Origin: Promethearchaeota archaeon Loki_b31 | GTDB taxonomy: Archaea > Asgardarchaeota > Lokiarchaeia > Sigyniarchaeales > SOKP01 | Assembly (NCBI GenBank): GCA_005222975.1 | Contig: NJBI01000005.1 | Span: forward strand, 63,447 to 127,446 | Reading direction: 5' to 3' | DNA: 64,000 nucleotides | Shown here: piece by piece, positions 7,764 to 44,354 of the stretch | Position numbering within the stretch: the first letter of the stretch is position 1 | Layout of the letters: every line of letters begins with the position of its first letter | Program-made: the position numbers and the translations under genes | Notes under the pieces: generated by a model | What the model was told of the DNA's origin: nothing | The model's input: the letters and a program-made list of their open reading frames with translations, nothing else | Databases searched by the model: none

Positions 7764-9050
7764 ATGAACGATTTGAGAAAAAAATTGAAAATTCCAGACG
7801 ACGCATTAAAAGTAATAAACGATTTCTTATTGGACGAAAAAAATCCACTGATAAACGATCTTTTAGATATAGTAGATAAATATGGCGGAATAGAGGAGAT
7901 TAATAGAAAGGCAGAAGAAGCCAGTAAATTAGAAAACTTACTCGAAAAATTAAAAAAGAAAAAGCCAGAATATGTTAAGGATATTGAGTGGTTGATTTCT
8001 CAACGCGGCAATAATTCTTTTATTAGCATAGTAGATTATAGAAAAAAGATTTTAGGCGATAAAGCGTCTGAAATGACTTTCGACGAAGACTTTGCTATAA
8101 CATTAGAACTTTCTGCGTGTCAATACTTCCCTTTCTTGATGGATATGGTAAGAGACGCCGTTAAAAATCAAAAAATAGTACCTGGTAGAATCATTCGCGT
8201 AAGATACATGAAAGAACAGGAAGAAGACGGGGATTTACTAGCTATGGCAGCGGCAATGCAAATTATTGGTTCGACTTGGGTCGAAACTCTTGACACAAAG
8301 GGAACTGCCCCTGGTCCAGATGGTATGCCTGTAAATGTACATCTTGGTGGTCCCGAAACTATTACTGGCTATTTTGGAGGTGTTGGACAACCAAACAATT
8401 TTGCGTTAAAATGGGTTGATGAATATCTTTATTATTATACTAACTACGGCATTAAACAGGTTCTTAATGTGAATCCAGGCACTGTTTTATTAGGTTATTT
8501 TATCCATAAACTTGGTATCAACAACGAATTTAAAATTAGTGTATACATGGGTAATGATAACCCGTATTCTTGTCTTTGGACATTATTGACCGCTAAATTG
8601 TTTGCACGGGAGGATGGAACTAGTCCCTTGATTGGCTTTAACCTTGCCAATTCAGTTAATAATGAAACTATTGAAGTAACTGCCTATATTAGAAAAGAAT
8701 TTGGGTTTGAAGATGTAGTACGAATAGAACACCATATAACTGAAACATGGAAAAGTATTGTAAGGCAGCCTTATGATCGTCGAGACGAATTAATGGAATT
8801 AGCTAAGAAAGTGAAGAATGTAAGTGCGAAACATGAGGGAGCAAATGTTGATGTTGACGAAAAACGGGATCATCCTACAGATATCCTTGAATATTTCATG
8901 ACTAAGGAGGATATTGAAGAAGCGGGAATATGGGAAGCATTACGCATAAACCTTCTCGACCGATACGAAGCTATTAATACTACAGCTGAAGCTCTAACCA
9001 AAAAGGGACTAACATTTATAGCTGCTAAGAATTTACATCATCGGGAATAA
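7764..9050 (+). CDS. Conserved-looking hypothetical protein, co-oriented 19 nt upstream of the dapA-fae fusion
   Basis: 428 aa ORF with Gly/His-rich enzyme-like motifs (ETLDTKGT, HLGGPETITGYFGG, RIEHHITE, SAKHEG); family not recognised. Confidence 0.75.
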   Translation: MNDLRKKLKIPDDALKVINDFLLDEKNPLINDLLDIVDKYGGIEEINRKAEEASKLENLLEKLKKKKPEYVKDIEWLISQRGNNSFISIVDYRKKILGDKASEMTFDEDFAITLELSACQYFPFLMDMVRDAVKNQKIVPGRIIRVRYMKEQEEDGDLLAMAAAMQIIGSTWVETLDTKGTAPGPDGMPVNVHLGGPETITGYFGGVGQPNNFALKWVDEYLYYYTNYGIKQVLNVNPGTVLLGYFIHKLGINNEFKISVYMGNDNPYSCLWTLLTAKLFAREDGTSPLIGFNLANSVNNETIEVTAYIRKEFGFEDVVRIEHHITETWKSIVRQPYDRRDELMELAKKVKNVSAKHEGANVDVDEKRDHPTDILEYFMTKEDIEEAGIWEALRINLLDRYEAINTTAEALTKKGLTFIAAKNLHHRE

Positions 9051-9069
9051 TAAATAGAGGTTAATTTAA

Positions 9070-10560
9070 ATGGGAAAATTTGATTTTAGACCAACAGGAG
9101 TTATGCCAGCATTAGTAACTCCTTTTAATAAAGAAGACGAATCAATTAACGAAGAAAACCTTAGAAATTTAGTAAACCATCTTATAGATCAAGGAGTTAC
9201 GGGACTTGTTCCCGTAGGGACGACTGGAGAGTTCGTTAACATGACTTTTGAAGAACGCTTGAGAGTCATCGAAATAGTCGTCGACGAGACGAATGGTAGG
9301 GTTCCTGTAATTGCTGGAACTGGAGAAACGGGAACAAATTTGGTAATCGATGCCACTAAAGCTGCAACGGACATCGGTGCAGATGCGGCTATAATTGTAA
9401 CGCCTTATTATCTCAAACCTAAGGCAAAAGGGTTGTACGACCATTATTTTACGATAGCAGAAAAAACCGATATACCCTTGGTGTTGTATAATATTCCCGT
9501 CTGTACGGGGGTAGAACTGCCTTGGACTGTTGTAGAAGATCTAGTTGATATAGATAATTTCGTCGCGATAAAGGATTCTAGCGGTGACTACAAATATTTC
9601 TCTGCGTTATTAGAGAAAGTGAGCGATAAAATCTCCGTTCTAATAGGGTGGGACGAAAATGTATTGGGTGCTTTAGCTGGTGGCGCTGCGGGTTGTATAC
9701 TTGGTTCTGCTAATGTTATTCCTAAGGTATGGCTCGAACTTTACGACCATGTAAAAAATAATCGCTTAATTGAAGCACAAACTCTACAAAAGAAAGTGCA
9801 AAAGCTAGCTCGAATGTTAATCAATTCTGGAGCTCTAGGCGCCAAAGAGTGTTTGAATTTGATGGGCATTCCAGTAGGCACAACAAGACGCCCGATCATT
9901 TTAGGAGACGCTCTTTCCTACGAACTCCAAGACGAATTTAGAGTTGAACTTGAAAAGTTAGGATATATCGAAAAGAAAGAAATTAAGTTCGAGATTGATG
10001 ATAAAGAACTAACGAGTCGTTTTTACGCAGTGGGTGTTACACCTGACAAAATTTCTGATTTCAGCTTAAAAGTCGGAGAATCGCTTGTTGGCAGTAGAGC
10101 GGAGTTAGCACATATTGATCTTTTAATAGGAAATAAAAAGGGCCCCGTAGGTGACGCTTACGCTCGTGCTTTAACTCATCCAGCTAAAGGGCGTGAAGGG
10201 TTACAGGTAATTCTCGAACCAAACATGCAAGTCAAACCTGCGACTATTATGATCCCTACAGTTAAAATCACTTCGCTTCGCCACGCAAGTTTGACTTATG
10301 GACCTGCTCAAGCAGCAGTAGCAAAAGCGGTAATGAAATGCGTAGAGGATGGCATTCTTCCTAAAGAAGCAGCAGAGGATATATTAATAATTGTAAATGT
10401 ATTTGTACATCCTAGCGCTAGCGCTCGAAAACGGGTATTTATTAATAACTATAAAGCTACAAGAAACGCCATTCGAAAGGCAATGGAAGGGTTACCAACG
10501 GTAGATGACGCTATTCAAAACGCTGAAAATGCACGTCATCCCTTCAGGAACGATCCGTAA
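9070..10560 (+). CDS. DapA/NAL-family class I aldolase fused to formaldehyde-activating enzyme (Fae) domain
   Basis: N-terminal GTTGE, YNIP, IKDSSG (Schiff-base Lys); C-terminal ~165 aa VGESLVG..LAHIDLLIG.K.GPVG, GPAQAAVAKAV, VFVHP, NYKAT..AI.KAM, HPF typical of Fae. Confidence 0.88.
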   Translation: MGKFDFRPTGVMPALVTPFNKEDESINEENLRNLVNHLIDQGVTGLVPVGTTGEFVNMTFEERLRVIEIVVDETNGRVPVIAGTGETGTNLVIDATKAATDIGADAAIIVTPYYLKPKAKGLYDHYFTIAEKTDIPLVLYNIPVCTGVELPWTVVEDLVDIDNFVAIKDSSGDYKYFSALLEKVSDKISVLIGWDENVLGALAGGAAGCILGSANVIPKVWLELYDHVKNNRLIEAQTLQKKVQKLARMLINSGALGAKECLNLMGIPVGTTRRPIILGDALSYELQDEFRVELEKLGYIEKKEIKFEIDDKELTSRFYAVGVTPDKISDFSLKVGESLVGSRAELAHIDLLIGNKKGPVGDAYARALTHPAKGREGLQVILEPNMQVKPATIMIPTVKITSLRHASLTYGPAQAAVAKAVMKCVEDGILPKEAAEDILIIVNVFVHPSASARKRVFINNYKATRNAIRKAMEGLPTVDDAIQNAENARHPFRNDP

Positions 10561-10826: not shown

Positions 10827-11306
10827 ATGAACGAGAAAAAAGTAGAATTAAAGGTTGGAGAAACTGCTCCCGAATTTTGTCTTCCAGATAAAGATAACAA
10901 GGAAGTATGTCTAAAAGATTTCAAAGGTAAATATGTTATCGTATATTTTTATCCTAAAGATAATACTCCCGGCTGCACAATTGAGGCAATAGGTTTTACA
11001 GGGATTTTGCCCGAATTTCAAAAGCTAAACGCGGAAGTTATTGGTATAAGCCCTGATAGTCCCGAATCTCACGCTAAATTTATTGAAAAAAAGAATTTGA
11101 AAGTTATTTTGTTAAGTGATTTGGATAAAGAAGTATTAAAAAAATATGGAGCATGGGGATCAAAAGCTTATCGAGGTAAGACTTATTTGGGAGTTACTCG
11201 AAGTACTTATTTAGTAAATCCGGAAGGTAAAATTTCTTATATGTGGCCAAAAGTTAGAGTGAAAGGACATGTTGAAGAAGTTAAAGATATTTTAGCGGGT
11301 TTATAA
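10827..11306 (+). CDS. bcp: Peroxiredoxin, BCP/PrxQ type
   Basis: YFYPKDNTPGCTIEA motif. Confidence 0.92.
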   Translation: MNEKKVELKVGETAPEFCLPDKDNKEVCLKDFKGKYVIVYFYPKDNTPGCTIEAIGFTGILPEFQKLNAEVIGISPDSPESHAKFIEKKNLKVILLSDLDKEVLKKYGAWGSKAYRGKTYLGVTRSTYLVNPEGKISYMWPKVRVKGHVEEVKDILAGL

Positions 11307-11372
11307 ATAAAACCTTTAAAACATCTAAACATATTAAAATTAATTAAAATTAAAAGAGAATTAAGAATTTAC

Positions 11373-11813
11373 ATGATTGATAGAAAATTCATTGGCTACG
11401 AATTTACACCAAAAGAAATGGCTATTACTCGTTGGCGAATCTCTCAATTTGCTAACGCGATAAGGGAATCGAACTCAATTTATTACGACGTCAATGAAGC
11501 CAAAAATCAAGGTTTTAAAGACATACCTGTTCCTACTACTTTTTACACGAGGATGACCTTCTCAGATAATAACTTTTTTTCAACTTTGGGGATAGATTTT
11601 AGAAAATTATTAGATGGTGGCAGAGAAATTAAGTATTACTCTCAATGTTGTGCCGGAGATACCATTATATATCAAACCAAAGTCGAAAATATTGTTGAAA
11701 AGGAAGGAAAAAGAGGTAAAATGGATTTAATAACGGTGGTCACAAGTGGAAAAAACAAGGATACTGGAGAAAAGGTTTTTGATTTAATCATTTCATTAAT
11801 CGTGTTCCATTAA
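11373..11813 (+). CDS. MaoC-like dehydratase N-terminal (hot-dog) subunit
   Basis: FANAI.E.N.IYYD..EA...GF.DIP.P.TF; paired with next gene. Confidence 0.8.
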   Translation: MIDRKFIGYEFTPKEMAITRWRISQFANAIRESNSIYYDVNEAKNQGFKDIPVPTTFYTRMTFSDNNFFSTLGIDFRKLLDGGREIKYYSQCCAGDTIIYQTKVENIVEKEGKRGKMDLITVVTSGKNKDTGEKVFDLIISLIVFH

Positions 11814-11834
11814 ATTTAAAAGGTGATTTGAAAA

Positions 11835-12266
11835 TTGGATAAAGAAGATTTGTTTTTTGAAGATATTTCAACGGGAATGGAATTACCTACATCAAAAAGG
11901 GGACCAATTGTTCGACAACAATTAATAGATTACGCATCAGCATCTGGAGATTATAATAAAATTCATTACGACGAGGGGTTTGCGAAAATAGCTAAACTAC
12001 CTGGATGTATCGCCCATGGAATGCTTGTTATGTCAATAGTCGGGTCCCACATTACTGATTGGGCAAAGGGAGGGGTGTTAAAAGACTTCAAAATAAGGTT
12101 TGCTGGTATGACAAATGAGAACGATACTTTAATGTTAAAAGGAAAAGTATTGAAAAAATACTCTGAAAACGGCGAAAATCTGGTCGAAATTAGCGTTCTA
12201 AGCGAAACTCAAGACGAAAGAATTACAACGCAAGGTTCCGCAGTTATAGCCCTAAAAACAAAGTAA
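11835..12266 (+). CDS. MaoC family (R)-specific enoyl-CoA hydratase/dehydratase subunit
   Basis: YASASGDYNKIHYD and IAHGML hydratase motif. Confidence 0.88.
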   Translation: MDKEDLFFEDISTGMELPTSKRGPIVRQQLIDYASASGDYNKIHYDEGFAKIAKLPGCIAHGMLVMSIVGSHITDWAKGGVLKDFKIRFAGMTNENDTLMLKGKVLKKYSENGENLVEISVLSETQDERITTQGSAVIALKTK

Positions 12267-12471
12267 TTTTTATTTTTTCCTAATAATTTTTTTATGAATT
12301 ATTTATGTTCCAAATCAAAGAGTTATAACTCAAAATAATTCATTTAGAAAGTTAATATCTAATAAGGCGTATATTGATATTCTTTAAATATTTCTTAATT
12401 AATTAGGTTTCAATCATAAATGAAATCTTCAAATTTAAGGTTTTAAAATGTTTTTTTAAAGGTGTTGAAAT

Positions 12472-13041
12472 ATGGATGTAAAAATTGCGATTGAAAAAAG
12501 AAGAGCATATAGATCTCTTGAACTCGTTGAGATTTCCGACGAACTAATAGAAGATTTAGCCGGATCGGCGCGATTAGCGCCATCTTGTTTTAATAAACAG
12601 CCATGGAGATATGTATTTGTTCGCGATAAAGAGCAACTAGAAAAACTTCACAAGTCATTATCAATAACTAATAAGTGGGTAGAATTAGGTTCGTTAATTA
12701 TCGCTGTGTTTAGCGAAGTTAAAAATGATTGCGTTATCAAAGAGAGGCAATATTATCTTTTCGATACGGGTTTAGCGAGCGCTTTTATAATGCTTCGCGC
12801 TACAGAATTAGGTCTTGTTGCGCACCCTATCGCGGGTTTTAATGAAGATGCGGCGAAGAGAGTGCTTGGCATTCCAGAGCACATGCGATTAATTTCCTTA
12901 ATAGTAATTGGTAAACATTCTAAAGAATTTAAAGAAGAATTAACCGATATTCAAAAATCCAAAGAGGATCCAAGACCAGAAAGAAAGCAATTTAAAGAAT
13001 TCGTTTTCATAGATGAATTTACCAAACCGTTTAACAAGTAA
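12472..13041 (+). CDS. Nitroreductase family protein
   Basis: RRAYRS, APSCFNKQPW motifs. Confidence 0.88.
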   Translation: MDVKIAIEKRRAYRSLELVEISDELIEDLAGSARLAPSCFNKQPWRYVFVRDKEQLEKLHKSLSITNKWVELGSLIIAVFSEVKNDCVIKERQYYLFDTGLASAFIMLRATELGLVAHPIAGFNEDAAKRVLGIPEHMRLISLIVIGKHSKEFKEELTDIQKSKEDPRPERKQFKEFVFIDEFTKPFNK

Positions 13042-13047
13042 TAAAAG

Positions 13048-15177
13048 GTGAAAATCATAGAAGAAAACAAAAAACAAAAAGATGAGCATCAACTTAATAG
13101 AAAATTCAATAAATTAATAACTGAAAAAAGCCCTTATTTGCTGCAACACGCTGAGAATCCAGTAGATTGGTATCCTTGGGGAGAAGAGGCTTTTGAAAAA
13201 GCAAAGATGGAAGATAAACCGATATTTCTTTCAGTTGGCTACTCTACTTGCCATTGGTGCCATGTAATGGCACACGAATCTTTTGACGACCCTACTGTTG
13301 CTAAATTTATGAACGATGTTTTTGTATCTATTAAAGTCGACCGGGAAGAACGACCGGACATCGATAAAATATATATGACAGTCTGCCAAATTATGACTAA
13401 TTCCGGGGGTTGGCCACTAACGATTCTAATGACTCCAGATAAAAAACCTTTCTTTGCTGGCACATATTTTCCCAAAGAAAGCCGTTTTGGAAGAATTGGC
13501 TTAATTGATTTAATCAATCGCGTGAATGATTTGTGGAAAAACGAAAGAAAGGAGTTGTTAGCATCGAGCGAAAAAATAACATTTGCATTACAAGACATCA
13601 ACATTGAGTCTCCAGGAAGAAGTCTTGAAGAAAAAGTTATAGAAAACGCTTATTCTCGGTTAAGTATGCGATTTGACGAAAAGAGAGGTGGCTTTGGCAG
13701 CGCACCAAAATTTCCTTCTCCTCATAACTTATTATTCTTATTAAGATATTGGAAAAGAACAGAAGATAAAAACGCTTTAGATATGGTTGAAAGCACTCTT
13801 AAGGCTATGAGGCGAGGCGGTATTTATGATCAAATTGGTTTTGGATTTCATCGCTATTCTACTGATGTTAACTGGTTAGTACCTCATTTCGAGAAGATGC
13901 TGTATGATCAGGCCCTATTAGCGCTCAGCTATATAGAAACTTATCAAGCGACTGGAAATATTGAGTATGGAGACACTGCTAAAGAGATTTTTACATATGT
14001 TTTGCGAGATATGAGTTCTCCTGAAGGAGGATTCTATTCGGCCGAAGATGCGGATAGCGAAGGAGAAGAGGGAAAATTTTATGTTTGGACTAAAGAAGAA
14101 ATTGAAAATATCTTAGAAAAAGAGGATGCTGAGCTAATAGAAAGTATTTATAATGTTGAAACTAACGGTAATTATTTAGATGAAGCTACTAGAGCGAAGA
14201 CTGGCAAAAATATTCTTCATTTGAAGGTTGGTCTATCTGAGCTCGCTAACCCTCAAGACGAAAGTTTTCATAGTTCTATAGAATCTATGAGACAAAAGCT
14301 TTTCAATTCGCGAGAAACCCGAATTAAACCTCATCGGGACGATAAAATATTAACTGATTGGAATGGATTAATGATTGCCGCGTTAGCTAAAGGTGGTTTC
14401 GTATTGAATGAAGGAAAATACATTAAAGCCGCGAAAAAAGCCGTAACTTTCATCCTTAAAGATTTAAGGAGGTCAGATGGGCGTCTTTTACATAGGTATC
14501 GCGACAGGACTGCTGAAATTGATGCTTATGTAGACGATTATTCGTTTCTTATCTGGGGTTTAATTAATTTATATGAGGCTACTTTTGACACATTTTACCT
14601 AAAAACGGCAATAGATTTAACTGAAGACCAAATAAATCATTTTTGGGACTCGTTTATAGGGGGGTTCTTCTTTACTGCGGAAGACGGAGAAAAATTGTTA
14701 GCCCGTCAGAAAGAGATTTATGACGGTGCTATTCCTTCTGGAAACTCTGTTGCGATGTTGAACCTACTCAAATTAGCTCAACTAACAGGAAATCAAGATT
14801 ACGAGAAAAAAGCAGATCTCATCAGTCGAGTTTTTGCTGAAAACGTTCGAAAGTCGCCCGTAGCACACAATTTCCTTTTGACAGCCGTAGATTACGCCGT
14901 TGGACCGACTTATTCTCTTGTTATTGCAGGAGACACAGGCAATGAAGATACTAATGATATGTTGTCTGAAATAAAGAAACATTTTTTGCCTAATAAGTCG
15001 TTAATCTTTCGACCCACAGAAAAAACAAGTCCAGAAATAGATGAGTTTTCTAATTTCGTTCAATATTTTAACAAATTCGACGGAAAAGCTACTGCGTATG
15101 TATGCATTAATAAAACTTGTAAGACACCAACAAATGATGTGAATAAAGCTTTAGAATATTTGAGTTCAAAAGGATAA
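13048..15177 (+). CDS. Thioredoxin-domain protein, YyaL/SPATA20 (DUF255) family
   Basis: [51 protein letters not shown]. Confidence 0.92.
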
Positions 15178-29291: not shown

Positions 29292-30137
29292 ATGGAAACG
29301 GATGATTTTTTTAAATGCTTATCTTGTGGCAAAAAGTTGGGTTTAAAATCAATAAATGGAGGGACCCAGTGCCCAGATTGTTTGTTAAAATTAGAATTTA
29401 AAACGGAAGATTTGGATTACAGAGAAATTAACAAGTATCTTCAAGGTATTTTAAATTTTTTTGTTTCAGATGTGAATGCTGCGTTTAATAAAGATCCCGC
29501 TGCACGCACCTTAATTGAAGTATTAACAAGTTATCCTGGGATTAAAGCTATATTACTATATCGCATAGCGCATTTTTTTTGGAAATTAGGACTACCATAC
29601 ATACCTAGATATATTTCCGGTATCGCACGAGATCTAACGGCCGTAGAAATTCATCCAGGAGCAGAAATTGGCAGCGACTTCTTTATAGACCACGGAGCAG
29701 GAGTAGTTATAGGGGAAACAGCTGAAGTTGGAAATAATGTAACAATTTACGCAGGCGTAGTTTTAGGTGGTACTAATTTGGAACAAAAAAAAAGACACCC
29801 CACTTTAGGTGATAATGTTGTTGTTGGTACTGGCGCAAAAATTTTAGGACCTATTACTCTTGGAGATAACGTGAGAGTTGGGGCGAATTCCGTGGTTGTT
29901 AACGATGTACCTTCAAATTGCGTAGTCGTAGGGGTTCCTGCGAAAATTGTTTCGAAAAAAGGAGAAAAAATCGAAAAAATTGATTTGCGCCACGGTGACC
30001 TTCCCGACCCAATTTCAATCGCTATCTCGAGTTTAAATAAAAGAATCAAAGAATTAGAGAAATATTTTCCTCATAGTTCGAAACCTACAGAAGACAATAT
30101 CGAAATATTTTACGGAGAAAATGGTAGTGGAATATAA
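29292..30137 (+). CDS. cysE: Serine O-acetyltransferase with N-terminal zinc ribbon
   Basis: DPAAR, EIHPGA, FIDHGAGVVIGET, KRHPTLG hexapeptide repeats; N-terminal CLSC/CPDC. Confidence 0.93.
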   Translation: METDDFFKCLSCGKKLGLKSINGGTQCPDCLLKLEFKTEDLDYREINKYLQGILNFFVSDVNAAFNKDPAARTLIEVLTSYPGIKAILLYRIAHFFWKLGLPYIPRYISGIARDLTAVEIHPGAEIGSDFFIDHGAGVVIGETAEVGNNVTIYAGVVLGGTNLEQKKRHPTLGDNVVVGTGAKILGPITLGDNVRVGANSVVVNDVPSNCVVVGVPAKIVSKKGEKIEKIDLRHGDLPDPISIAISSLNKRIKELEKYFPHSSKPTEDNIEIFYGENGSGI

Positions 30138-30182
30138 AGTAGAAATTCTTTTTAATGATTGTAAAATAAAAAGGTGAATTTA

Positions 30183-31112
30183 ATGGCAAATTATTATAAT
30201 AATATAGTTGAAGCAATTGGGAAAACGCCCTTAGTGAAATTAAACAGAATCACTGGAAGTGTTAAGCCAAATGTATTTGTAAAATTGGAGTCTCTTAATC
30301 CTGGGGGTAGCGTTAAAGATAGAATTGGAATGAACATGATACAGAAAGCAGAAGAGGAAGGTCTTATTGATAAAGATACAACCATAGTAGAGCCTACTTC
30401 TGGAAATACGGGCATTGGTTTAGCCCTCGTGTGTGCGTCAAAAGGATATAAAATAATTTTAGTAATGCCAGAAAGCGTAACTATTGAGAGAGTCCAAATT
30501 CTTAAAGCTTATGGTGCTGAAGTGGTTTTAACACCAAAAGAAGGTGGTATGAAAGGATCAATTTCAAAAGCGGAAGAAATAGCTAAAGAAAAAGGAAAAA
30601 TTTTCATCCCTCAGCAATTTAAAAACCTAGCAAACCCAGATATACACCGAAAAACTACGGCATTAGAGATATTTAACGATTTAGCTGGTCAAGTGGATGG
30701 GTTTGTTGCTGGAATAGGAACTGGAGGAACAATAACAGGAGTCGGTGAGGTATTAAAAGATAGGGTTGGGGCGAGAATGAAGGTTTACGCAGTAGAACCT
30801 AAAGATTCTGCGATCCTATCAGGTGGGAAACCAGGGCCTCATAAAATTCAGGGTATAGGGGCGGGTTTTATCCCCGAAGTGCTAAATATCAAAATTTACG
30901 ACAGAATTATAACAGTTGACTACAAAGATGCCAGCGAGACGGCTAGAAAATTAGCTAGAATGGAGGGAATATTCGTTGGAATTTCAGCAGGAGCTTGCAC
31001 ATGGGCAGCAATTCACGAAGCTTCAAAAGATTTCGTAGAAGGAGAAAATGTCGTGGCACTCTTACCTGACGGAGGAGAAAAATATCTCTCAACAGAATTG
31101 TATCAGTTTTAG
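30183..31112 (+). CDS. cysK: Cysteine synthase A (O-acetylserine sulfhydrylase)
   Basis: KLESLNPGGSVKDR, EPTSGNTG, GTGGT, HKIQGIG; ATG 30183 (GTG 30174 alternative). Confidence 0.95.
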   Translation: MANYYNNIVEAIGKTPLVKLNRITGSVKPNVFVKLESLNPGGSVKDRIGMNMIQKAEEEGLIDKDTTIVEPTSGNTGIGLALVCASKGYKIILVMPESVTIERVQILKAYGAEVVLTPKEGGMKGSISKAEEIAKEKGKIFIPQQFKNLANPDIHRKTTALEIFNDLAGQVDGFVAGIGTGGTITGVGEVLKDRVGARMKVYAVEPKDSAILSGGKPGPHKIQGIGAGFIPEVLNIKIYDRIITVDYKDASETARKLARMEGIFVGISAGACTWAAIHEASKDFVEGENVVALLPDGGEKYLSTELYQF

Positions 31113-42632: not shown

Positions 42633-44354
42633 TTATATTCCGTTAATAATCTTTTCTTTAGGAGCGTACGCGTCTTGTACCGCGTAGTTGTTAAAATTAA
42701 TGCTGTAGTGGTCCCGCCAGGATGCTATCACATCTTCCATCATATCTTCGTGAATATTTTCCTTAATTTTCCCTTCAGCGCGAATTAATGTTCCCATTGG
42801 CGCCGCCATGATTTCACCATTTTTCACTACTATTTGACCCTCCTTTATCGTATACGCTGCGCGCGAAAACGCCTTCTCTATTGTTTTACCGTCCATCTTG
42901 CTCGGATCTAACTTATAAACAGCCACATCACCGATAGCTCCAACGCCAAGATGACCTCGATCTTTTAGTCCCAAAGTTTTTGCGTTTCCTGCTCTTGTAA
43001 CAATGCACAACTCACTTAGAGTATATTCTCGGTCTAAATCTGGAAGTGTTGACGCTGTACTTGCTTTCTTTGAAACCACATTCTCTAGCATATCCTTCCG
43101 GGATTTGCGATCCATTAACCACTTGAATACAATCGGATAGGTTGTAAATGGCGCTCCGTTGGGATGGTCTGTCGTGTGGCTAATCTGCCAAGGATCTTTG
43201 ATTAAGAGCATCAATTCGAGACCGATCGCCCACTGAACGGCGTTTACACCTGTCTTCGGAGAAAAGAAATAGGGTACTACTCCCGATCCTGACTCCCCTT
43301 CGATTTGACCGTTTACCCATTTCATTCCTGGTTTTGCGCCCCAAGGACTCGTCCCTCCAAGGTGATGCAGAGCGTGTTCCCACGGACCGTCTCCAGTCAT
43401 CGTTGTAGTAGCGTATTTTGTAAAAACAACTTGACCGCTATCCAGAGACACATGTTTATGGGAATTAACATATTCTGCTATCTGAGATGCACCTGATTCG
43501 AAATTTCCCCAATTTGTGCCGGCGTAAGCGTTGAATTGGCAATGGGTTATATGAAGCGATCGCTCTCTCTCACCATAAGGTTCAATACCTTCACATATTT
43601 TAAGAGTCTCTATTGTATGCTCGTAATTTCCAGGGTGACCTAAGTTATTACAATGAACGTGAATTGAATGCGGTAATTCTAATAATTCATTTGCTTTTGC
43701 TAAACTTTCGACAATTTGTCTGGGGGTGACATCCCAATGCAAGACGGGTGAATCCACACTATCGCAATTCTTGCCCCATGCCCAGTTTTCCACGCCTCCT
43801 GGGTTCACGATTTTAATCGCATAACCTTTTGTAGTTTTTAAAATCCAATTTACGTAAGCCGCTAATTTCTCGATATCGTTCTCCCTTACAAATTTGAGGA
43901 CATACCAGTTATTTCCAAAGATAGGCATCGCTAATTTATCGATAATAGGAAGCTCTAGAAACTCTTCGTGAGTATGTCGAGCCTCCAATAATGGCATAGC
44001 AGGTTCACATACGGTCGTATATCCTAACGTAGCGTATCTATAACCAGTAGCCCATGTGCTTGGTACGCTAAATCCAGTACCAGATCGCCTTATTTTAGTT
44101 TTTTTCTCGTTACTTTCTGGCACTTTATCTTCCGGTCGTAAAGTTCGTCCGACATTTACTTTTGCCCCGGCGATGTGTGAATGAATATCAACTCCTCCTG
44201 GCATAATTATCATGCCCTTGGCATCGATAACTTTTGCGTCTCCATTAACCTTATTAACAACCACGCCATCTTTAACGTAGATATCCTTCTTTTCGCCGTT
44301 GATGTTGTTCAAAGGGTCGTAAACTAAGCCATTTTTTATTACTAGATCGCTCAT
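42633..44354 (-). CDS. fwdA: Formylmethanofuran dehydrogenase subunit A (amidohydrolase)
   Basis: GGVDIHSHIAG.KVN.GR, KIVNPGG, HVHCNNLG.PGN, TTDHPNG. Confidence 0.95.
   Translation of the reverse strand: MSDLVIKNGLVYDPLNNINGEKKDIYVKDGVVVNKVNGDAKVIDAKGMIIMPGGVDIHSHIAGAKVNVGRTLRPEDKVPESNEKKTKIRRSGTGFSVPSTWATGYRYATLGYTTVCEPAMPLLEARHTHEEFLELPIIDKLAMPIFGNNWYVLKFVRENDIEKLAAYVNWILKTTKGYAIKIVNPGGVENWAWGKNCDSVDSPVLHWDVTPRQIVESLAKANELLELPHSIHVHCNNLGHPGNYEHTIETLKICEGIEPYGERERSLHITHCQFNAYAGTNWGNFESGASQIAEYVNSHKHVSLDSGQVVFTKYATTTMTGDGPWEHALHHLGGTSPWGAKPGMKWVNGQIEGESGSGVVPYFFSPKTGVNAVQWAIGLELMLLIKDPWQISHTTDHPNGAPFTTYPIVFKWLMDRKSRKDMLENVVSKKASTASTLPDLDREYTLSELCIVTRAGNAKTLGLKDRGHLGVGAIGDVAVYKLDPSKMDGKTIEKAFSRAAYTIKEGQIVVKNGEIMAAPMGTLIRAEGKIKENIHEDMMEDVIASWRDHYSINFNNYAVQDAYAPKEKIINGI

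Follow-up and report, generated by a model that had tools for sequence, protein, structure and literature searches.

A conserved gene pair containing an aldolase-Fae fusion

This work concerns two adjacent genes in a 64,000-nt stretch (hereafter, the window) of contig NJBI01000005.1, from the metagenome-assembled genome (MAG) of Promethearchaeota archaeon Loki_b31, which is 92 % complete. The first gene, designated X, is followed by a gene fusing a class I pyruvate aldolase domain to a complete formaldehyde-activating enzyme (Fae) domain (Table 1). Their sequences and gene contexts suggest that the two products probably link 4-hydroxy-2-oxobutanoate (HOB) to pyruvate and carrier-bound one-carbon (C1) units, most likely in methionine metabolism.

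An earlier note, made from the letters of the window, had reported gene products of 428 and 496 aa separated by 19 nt, and a DHDPS-type aldolase and a Fae domain joined in a single open reading frame (ORF). We confirmed both reports, with the PF00701 and PF08714 matches lying in the same frame, as well as the motifs GTTGE (residues 50–54), YNIP (140–143), IKDS (containing K168) and AHIDL (containing H348). In the structure model of the 496-aa protein, likewise, a DHDPS barrel and a Fae domain are joined by a linker that is predicted only weakly. The note had also considered that the fusion might be an assembly artefact. This was ruled out, because the best 120 homologs are all two-domain proteins and full-length fusions occur in many Asgard families and in Bathyarchaeia; judging by these homologs, the fusion is real and old. 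A promoter scan gave counts at chance level (15 vs. 11.8).

Table 1. Features of the X-fusion locus and of the associated C1 pathway in the window.
Feature	Coordinates	Strand	Basis or comment
Gene X (428 aa)	7764..9050	+	ORF
AGAGGT, Shine-Dalgarno-like	9056..9061	+	sequence only; in the 19-nt gap between X and the fusion
Aldolase-Fae fusion (496 aa)	9070..10560	+	single ORF, one frame
Class I pyruvate-aldolase domain (DHDPS/NAL family), residues 1–300	9070..9969	+	profile match, alignment, tree, structure model
Linker, residues 301–332	9970..10065	+	low model confidence at residues 315–326
Fae domain, complete, residues 333–496	10066..10560	+	profile match, alignment
fwdA, formylmethanofuran dehydrogenase subunit A	42633..44354	-	TIGR03121, 779 bits; outside the X-fusion operon, downstream C1 pathway context

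The fused aldolase differs from DapA

The N-terminal domain matches PF00701 over residues 8–277 (E = 3e-74) and has the hallmarks of the DHDPS/NAL class I family (K168, Y140, T51, Y114, GTTGE and a TIM barrel), with the pyruvate-binding core retained (T51, T52, Y114, Y140, K168, G193 and D195). It also passes the TIGR00674 cut-off for DapA (233 vs. 206 bits), which explains the DapA name given to these proteins in databases. In DapA, Arg138 binds aspartate semialdehyde; this residue is present in E. coli DapA and in five out of five dapB-linked Asgard DapA proteins, and each of the 24 fusion rows of the alignment has Cys, Leu or Val at its position. Additionally, Asp187 is replaced by an aromatic residue (W/H/Y/F), Asn248 is lost and Ser48 is changed to an invariant Phe; in the protein from the window, the positions of Arg138, Asp187 and Asn248 correspond to C145, W194 and G254. 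The Phe and the aromatic replacements would crowd the acceptor pocket, suiting a very small aldehyde. In a phylogeny that contained no characterised HOGA sequence, the 24 fusion aldolases form a single clade (98/99), apart from DapA, NanA, YagE and KdgD. The fusion also falls below the curated cut-offs for NanA (181 vs. 281 bits), KdgD (106 vs. 374), archaeal KDG aldolase (107 vs. 390) and HpaI-not-DapA (190 vs. 397).

It is highly improbable that this domain is a true DapA of lysine synthesis with Fae as an incidental passenger. Besides the TIGR00674 score and the database names, such a role would agree with the best PDB folds, which are DapA, and with the fusion gene being the only intact member of the DHDPS family found in the MAG. 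However, neither dapB nor asd was found in this 92 %-complete genome, and homoserine dehydrogenase was not found either; the lack of asd may be an assembly gap, since most relatives have it. Moreover, relatives G008 and G147 contain the fusion plus a separate dapA-dapB pair. Together with the missing Arg138 and the separate clade, this supports the earlier proposal that the enzyme is something other than DapA, and we conclude from sequence and phylogeny that the fusion aldolase is not DapA.

Elsewhere, the DHDPS-like fold appears in another combination: a 693-aa protein (L082:181-2262, contig G000:C8; homologs in G008 and G144) has a degenerate N-terminal domain of this type, devoid of GTTGE, whereas its C-terminal part resembles a phosphotransferase.

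An apparently functional Fae domain

The C-terminal domain matches PF08714 over residues 335–492 (E = 7e-58) and reaches 192 bits with TIGR03126 (cut-off 118). Residue H348 aligns with His22 of the solved Fae from M. extorquens, a residue with a functional role in that enzyme, and the C-terminal RHPF is retained. The domain thus proved to be full-length and intact, as had been claimed, and looks functional from its sequence. The fusion scores 159 bits with the Fae-Hps model NF009833, through its Fae part only and short of the threshold of 274, and has no C-terminal Hps domain. A separate Fae-Hps (544 bits) is encoded on a different contig of the MAG, and hence the fused Fae would not be needed for the pentose route. 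The MAG also encodes Mch and FwdA, which bears out the presence in the host of the tetrahydromethanopterin (H4MPT) pathway that the earlier note had deduced from the fwdA gene of the window.

Some loci contain tandem fusion paralogs, in which the EPN/GPAQ half is lost from one copy, with its His and C-terminus retained, and the other copy shows the reverse (L085, L086, L087, L088, L095, L096, L097, L131 and L133, and two bacteria-like contigs). These complementary losses show selection for a complete site formed across subunits.

X and Y, probable remote relatives of the U32 proteins

The earlier note had found the 428-aa protein unrecognised, and indeed neither single-sequence nor profile searches with X produced a match in Pfam, NCBIfam or PDB sequences. 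Its AlphaFold (AF2) model (pLDDT 91.8) is a (beta/alpha)8-barrel with an N-terminal helical extension. An Atlas fold search with X retrieved U32-like clusters of 309–316 aa (TM 0.56/0.75), and one of these clusters also ranked first among the feature matches of family Y, a 312-aa protein that adjoins the fusion in Asgard lineages lacking X. The HHalign alignment of X with Y spans 225 columns (E = 6.4e-5). The two families have motifs in common on strands 1, 5 and 8, including a K-x-E motif on the last strand, and the same flanking genes enclose X in G041 and Y in G058. PF01136 does not match X or archaeal Y, although two bacterial Y members pass its cut-off. The solved U32 structure 5d88 aligns to X with Z 11.4, level with many other barrels. 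From the models, X would be a remote, cysteine-less relative of U32 proteins, connected to them via family Y and belonging to no named family.

Other assignments for X were discarded. Class II fructose-bisphosphate aldolase came top in Foldseek, with a TM of about 0.3 and a root mean square deviation (rmsd) of 9–10 Å, and VIA did not single out BKACE or any other solved barrel, returning many tied TIM barrels (Z 11–12). The Pfam matches on P0247, P0253 and P0364 (M16C, BKACE and AOR/PanB) correspond to read-through or chimeric products and not to domains of X.

Among 158 X sequences, conserved residues are E115, R142, D177, K257, S259, N293, E322-H323-H324 and K356-H357-E358. These Glu, Arg, Asp, Lys, Asn and His residues lie at the barrel mouth of the model and would suit 2-oxoacid binding and acid-base or metal catalysis. 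No Cys occurs at the positions conserved in 97 % of these sequences, nor at the invariant positions of Y. The U32 hydroxylase TrhP needs C170 and C177 (PMC6599085); as these cysteines are not kept, hydroxylation by X or Y through an Fe-S centre is unlikely.

Two unusual settings were found for these families. VirSorter flagged the 41-kb contig that carries a divergent X homolog (P0244, 47 %; L106:8001-9158). This homolog is surrounded by replication genes and small genes of no known function, and could be an auxiliary metabolic gene or part of a mobile element. A Y gene on an Enterobacter plasmid (NZ_CP097174.1; L191:8901-20505) is located in an apparent small-molecule cluster, with a phosphotransferase, an aminotransferase, two iron-redox enzymes, an M14 peptidase and a major facilitator superfamily exporter.

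Genomic partners of X point to HOB

The fusion occurs in Asgard archaea, Bathyarchaeia and some bacteria, and adjoins X in 60 out of 80 archaeal loci seeded on X, three Bathyarchaeia loci being divergently oriented; X with tandem fusions was also found on the two bacteria-like contigs, which are high in GC. X itself is present in 174 of the 301 Asgard genomes searched, and databases contain at least 8000 members of its family. In a panel of 63 genomes, picked with their X status known and including kin that are not independent, so that the counts describe a pattern and not a statistic, the fusion was present in 34, all with Mch, of which 25 contained X, nine contained Y and none contained both. 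Every fusion genome thus has X or its homolog, and the two genes form a conserved module, in agreement with their pairing in the earlier note. The ten genomes with X but no fusion all lacked Mch, and none of the 19 genomes without X and Y had the fusion.

X has other partners as well. In 12 of the 80 archaeal loci it is found with an aspartate-type aminotransferase, homoserine dehydrogenase and an aldehyde:ferredoxin oxidoreductase (AOR), a module that occurs where H4MPT enzymes are missing and that sometimes includes a PatB C-S lyase. A gene for a PanB-like hydroxymethyltransferase, which in bacteria X usually comes after, lies near X in 50 of 82 mostly bacterial loci (47 of them adjacent), a set seeded on one bacterial X and including several near-duplicates; Fhs was found in eight of these loci, and FolD and a Glu/Leu/Phe/Val dehydrogenase in six each. 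In G213 and G089, X follows a different DHDPS-family gene lacking Fae. HOB is the only compound common to a pyruvate aldolase with Fae, to PanB with tetrahydrofolate (THF), and to a transaminase with homoserine dehydrogenase, which points to it as the shared metabolite and, with good probability, as the substrate of the fusion. These partner genes therefore indicate, independently of the fusion, the very compound that the earlier note had guessed. Engineered strains form HOB with promiscuous aldolases or with PanB and convert it to homoserine by transamination, and it is termed a non-native metabolite in this synthetic-methylotrophy work (PMC8879981; 10.1101/2025.02.17.638773). Our literature search, which did not reach most subscription papers, turned up no account of the fusion or of X, and the supplements of the Hodarchaeales preprint contained no matching text.

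The presence of aminotransferases and amino-acid dehydrogenases next to X suggests that X acts, besides HOB, on the keto acid that corresponds to an amino acid. Methionine or homocysteine is suggested by PatB, by a MetE-like gene situated between panB-like and X in locus L248, and by ATP sulfurylase, together with AsnC regulators, in L246 and L250. The L248 locus (L248:6431-11620, GCA_031459175.1) contains a 5′-deleted panB-like gene, an intact MetE-like gene (PF01717, E = 7e-4), a 3′-deleted X, a SAM-I riboswitch (8968–9068, E = 1.4e-18), thrB, a thrC-like gene and thiS. Loci L246 and L250 come from soil long-read contigs with many frameshifts, and in them X also lies near a sulfotransferase-family gene and genes for BKACE, SDR and a CoA ligase.

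A proposed route between methionine and the C1 pool

We propose that the two domains of the fusion act together as an H4MPT-dependent pyruvate hydroxymethyltransferase. HOB would be split into pyruvate and formaldehyde by the Schiff-base aldolase (K168), and the formaldehyde would be captured by the Fae domain as methylene-H4MPT, which could be oxidised by Mch and Fwd-type enzymes; the reaction would be reversible. Formaldehyde might pass directly from one domain to the other, as the earlier note suggested, although the linker joining them is poorly predicted. That the fusion interconverts HOB with pyruvate and methylene-H4MPT is, from sequence and gene context, quite probable. X would generate HOB from a 4-substituted 2-oxobutanoate: beta-elimination of the C4 group would leave 2-oxo-3-butenoate, to which water would then be added. 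The likeliest substrate of X would be the keto acid of methionine, with release of methanethiol, or that of homocysteine, with release of sulfide, made by an aminotransferase or an amino-acid dehydrogenase; such a sulfur keto acid is a plausible candidate, at somewhat below even odds. The net result would be fermentation of the methionine carbon chain, and we assign to this whole explanation a probability of about 0.5.

As to the direction of the pathway, catabolic according to the earlier note, the evidence points both ways, and breakdown appears slightly favoured over synthesis, although different hosts may use the route in different directions. In families with the homoserine-dehydrogenase module, Asd was found in 0/10, ThrC in 1/10 and HcyBio, the aspartate-semialdehyde route to homocysteine, in 0/10; in view of this near absence, the module is best read as leading from HOB through homoserine to aspartate. 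Cultured Hodarchaeales are peptide fermenters, and release of methylsulfide from methionine is suspected in one isolate (10.1101/2025.02.26.640444). We also counted for breakdown a Polaromonas X cluster with 2-hydroxyacid dehydrogenases, Fe-ADH and an SSADH-type aldehyde dehydrogenase at its end, and the retention of HcyBio in nine out of 15 close X-bearing relatives, which in turn speaks against synthesis and weakens the idea of X as a replacement for HcyBio.

Several observations weigh against the fermentation of methionine through HOB, besides the composition of the genome panel. Replacement of a thioether by water is uphill by roughly 25–40 kJ/mol, as estimated from formation energies, and the catabolic direction would therefore need removal of the products. 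Methionine gamma-lyase-family genes (PF01053) are not anticorrelated with X and occur in many X genomes, and we rejected X as a replacement for this enzyme. Some X and Y genes are found amid sugar-acid dehydratases and lactonases (L107, L190), and X has no close solved relative, its best Z of 12 being common to many TIM barrels. Finally, the L248 locus with its riboswitch and the loss of homoserine dehydrogenase from fusion genomes fit synthesis.

In this reverse direction, the fusion, the PanB-like enzyme, or AOR with homoserine dehydrogenase and the aminotransferase would make HOB, and X would add sulfide, methanethiol or cysteine at C4 to yield the keto acid of homocysteine, methionine or cystathionine, resulting in methionine synthesis from pyruvate, C1 units and reduced sulfur without ATP. 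We consider this rather unlikely, though the likeliest of the rival readings. PanB natively works in synthesis, and thioether formation is downhill. L248 looks like one homocysteine route replacing another, but it is a single decayed locus, and of the 30 X loci scanned the other 29 lack a SAM riboswitch. In the family of the window's genome, homoserine dehydrogenase is present in four of 15 genomes with X and the fusion and in 10 of 11 without them; nevertheless, ThrC is lost along with it, which fits a general loss of synthesis in scavengers. A homocysteine-methyltransferase domain was found in 28 of 35 X genomes vs. 5 of 28 others, whereas five f9 genomes with X and fusions gave no methionine-synthase match at E 1e-15. 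AOR, moreover, usually oxidises.

The HOB chemistry could also be right with X acting outside sulfur amino acids, as a tetronate dehydratase or as a lyase or hydratase for another 4-substituted 2-oxobutanoate (a betaine-type homoserine derivative, 2,4-diaminobutanoate or spontaneous 2-oxo-3-butenoate). This we regard as improbable, since the loci in its support are few and divergent. In L107, X is accompanied by IlvD/Edd, DhaKL and a protein of lactonase fold; Y has an enolase-superfamily dehydratase and sugar ABC genes as neighbours; and BKACE, SDR and CoA ligase genes adjoin X in L246 and L250. The usual partners of X are aminotransferases and amino-acid dehydrogenases, and its main hosts are peptide fermenters. 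It is far less probable that the aldolase acts on a different 4-hydroxy-2-oxoacid (ketopantoate, KDG or 4-hydroxy-2-oxoglutarate), with Fae merely scavenging formaldehyde from elsewhere. DHDPS-family aldolases are promiscuous, and the natural product of PanB is ketopantoate. However, the alternative partner homoserine dehydrogenase requires an unsubstituted C4 chain, and the strict co-occurrence with Mch and the complementary Fae halves of the tandem paralogs indicate selection on the Fae function within the fusion. Fermentation of the methionine chain through HOB is our preferred reading.

Neighbouring genes

The fusion gene is followed in the window (10827-15177) by genes for a Bcp peroxiredoxin, a nitroreductase and a 709-aa thioredoxin-domain protein, which also come after it in 22–37 related loci, probably through shared synteny. 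Further away (29292-31112) there is a cysE-cysK pair of bacterial type, both above cut-off. In five loci (L009:8805-9944, L015, L016, L021 and L048), an old-yellow-enzyme gene lies after the fusion, and its product could reduce 2-oxo-3-butenoate to 2-oxobutanoate.

Significance and comparison with known systems

If correct, our proposal would provide a dedicated natural HOB aldolase joined to Fae, a direct part for an engineered homoserine cycle and evidence that nature uses HOB chemistry. Our results also correct a systematic mis-annotation as DapA, which can make Asgard and Bathyarchaeia genomes seem competent for lysine synthesis, and give the abundant orphan family X a testable function. 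The proposal may likewise account for methionine use in peptide-fermenting archaea of sediments and for their retention of the H4MPT C1 branch. In a broader and more tentative version, for which we see perhaps one chance in three, X and Y would be an undescribed enzyme family able to swap water and thiols at the C4 position of 2-oxobutanoates. Together with the three HOB modules, which would be interchangeable, they would form a natural, reversible and ATP-free link of methionine or homocysteine to pyruvate and methylene-pterin. This link would be common among Asgard archaea, Bathyarchaeia and anaerobic bacteria, and would serve either as a keto-acid demethiolase route that releases methanethiol or as a new way of making methionine from C1 units and sulfide.

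In its design the fusion resembles Fae-Hps, its net reaction would resemble that of PanB, and the chemistry of its orphan partner X could be new. Fae-Hps (bifunctional H4MPT hydro-lyase/3-hexulose-6-phosphate synthase, NF009833) also joins Fae to an enzyme making or breaking a C-C bond with formaldehyde, which is coupled to H4MPT, but what accompanies Fae in the fusion is a pyruvate aldolase of the class I Schiff-base type, in N-terminal position. With DapA (4-hydroxy-tetrahydrodipicolinate synthase, TIGR00674, PF00701) the aldolase shares the fold (rmsd of about 1.5 Å), the pyruvate site and the catalytic triad, differing in the residues at positions 138, 187 and 248, in its own clade, in the absence of linkage to dapB and in the attached Fae. 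With PanB (ketopantoate hydroxymethyltransferase, TIGR00222) the fusion would share the type of net reaction, in which a hydroxymethyl group moves reversibly between C3 of a 2-oxoacid and a pterin carrier, and PanB-like genes occupy the place of the fusion beside X in bacteria; fold details and mechanism are nevertheless unrelated (metal enolate vs. Schiff base), and the carrier (THF vs. H4MPT) and the number of domains (one vs. two) differ. The U32 hydroxylases (TrhP, RlhA; PF01136) resemble X in the TIM barrel and are approached by the bacterial Y members that pass the PF01136 cut-off, whereas X has neither a match to this family nor conserved cysteines. Lastly, in the synthetic homoserine cycle (PMC8879981, 10.1101/2025.02.17.638773) an HOB aldolase step (RhmA/GarL) equally condenses pyruvate and formaldehyde to HOB, followed by transamination to homoserine, but this step is described as non-native and relies on promiscuous class II aldolases, whereas the fusion would be a dedicated natural class I enzyme equipped with Fae.

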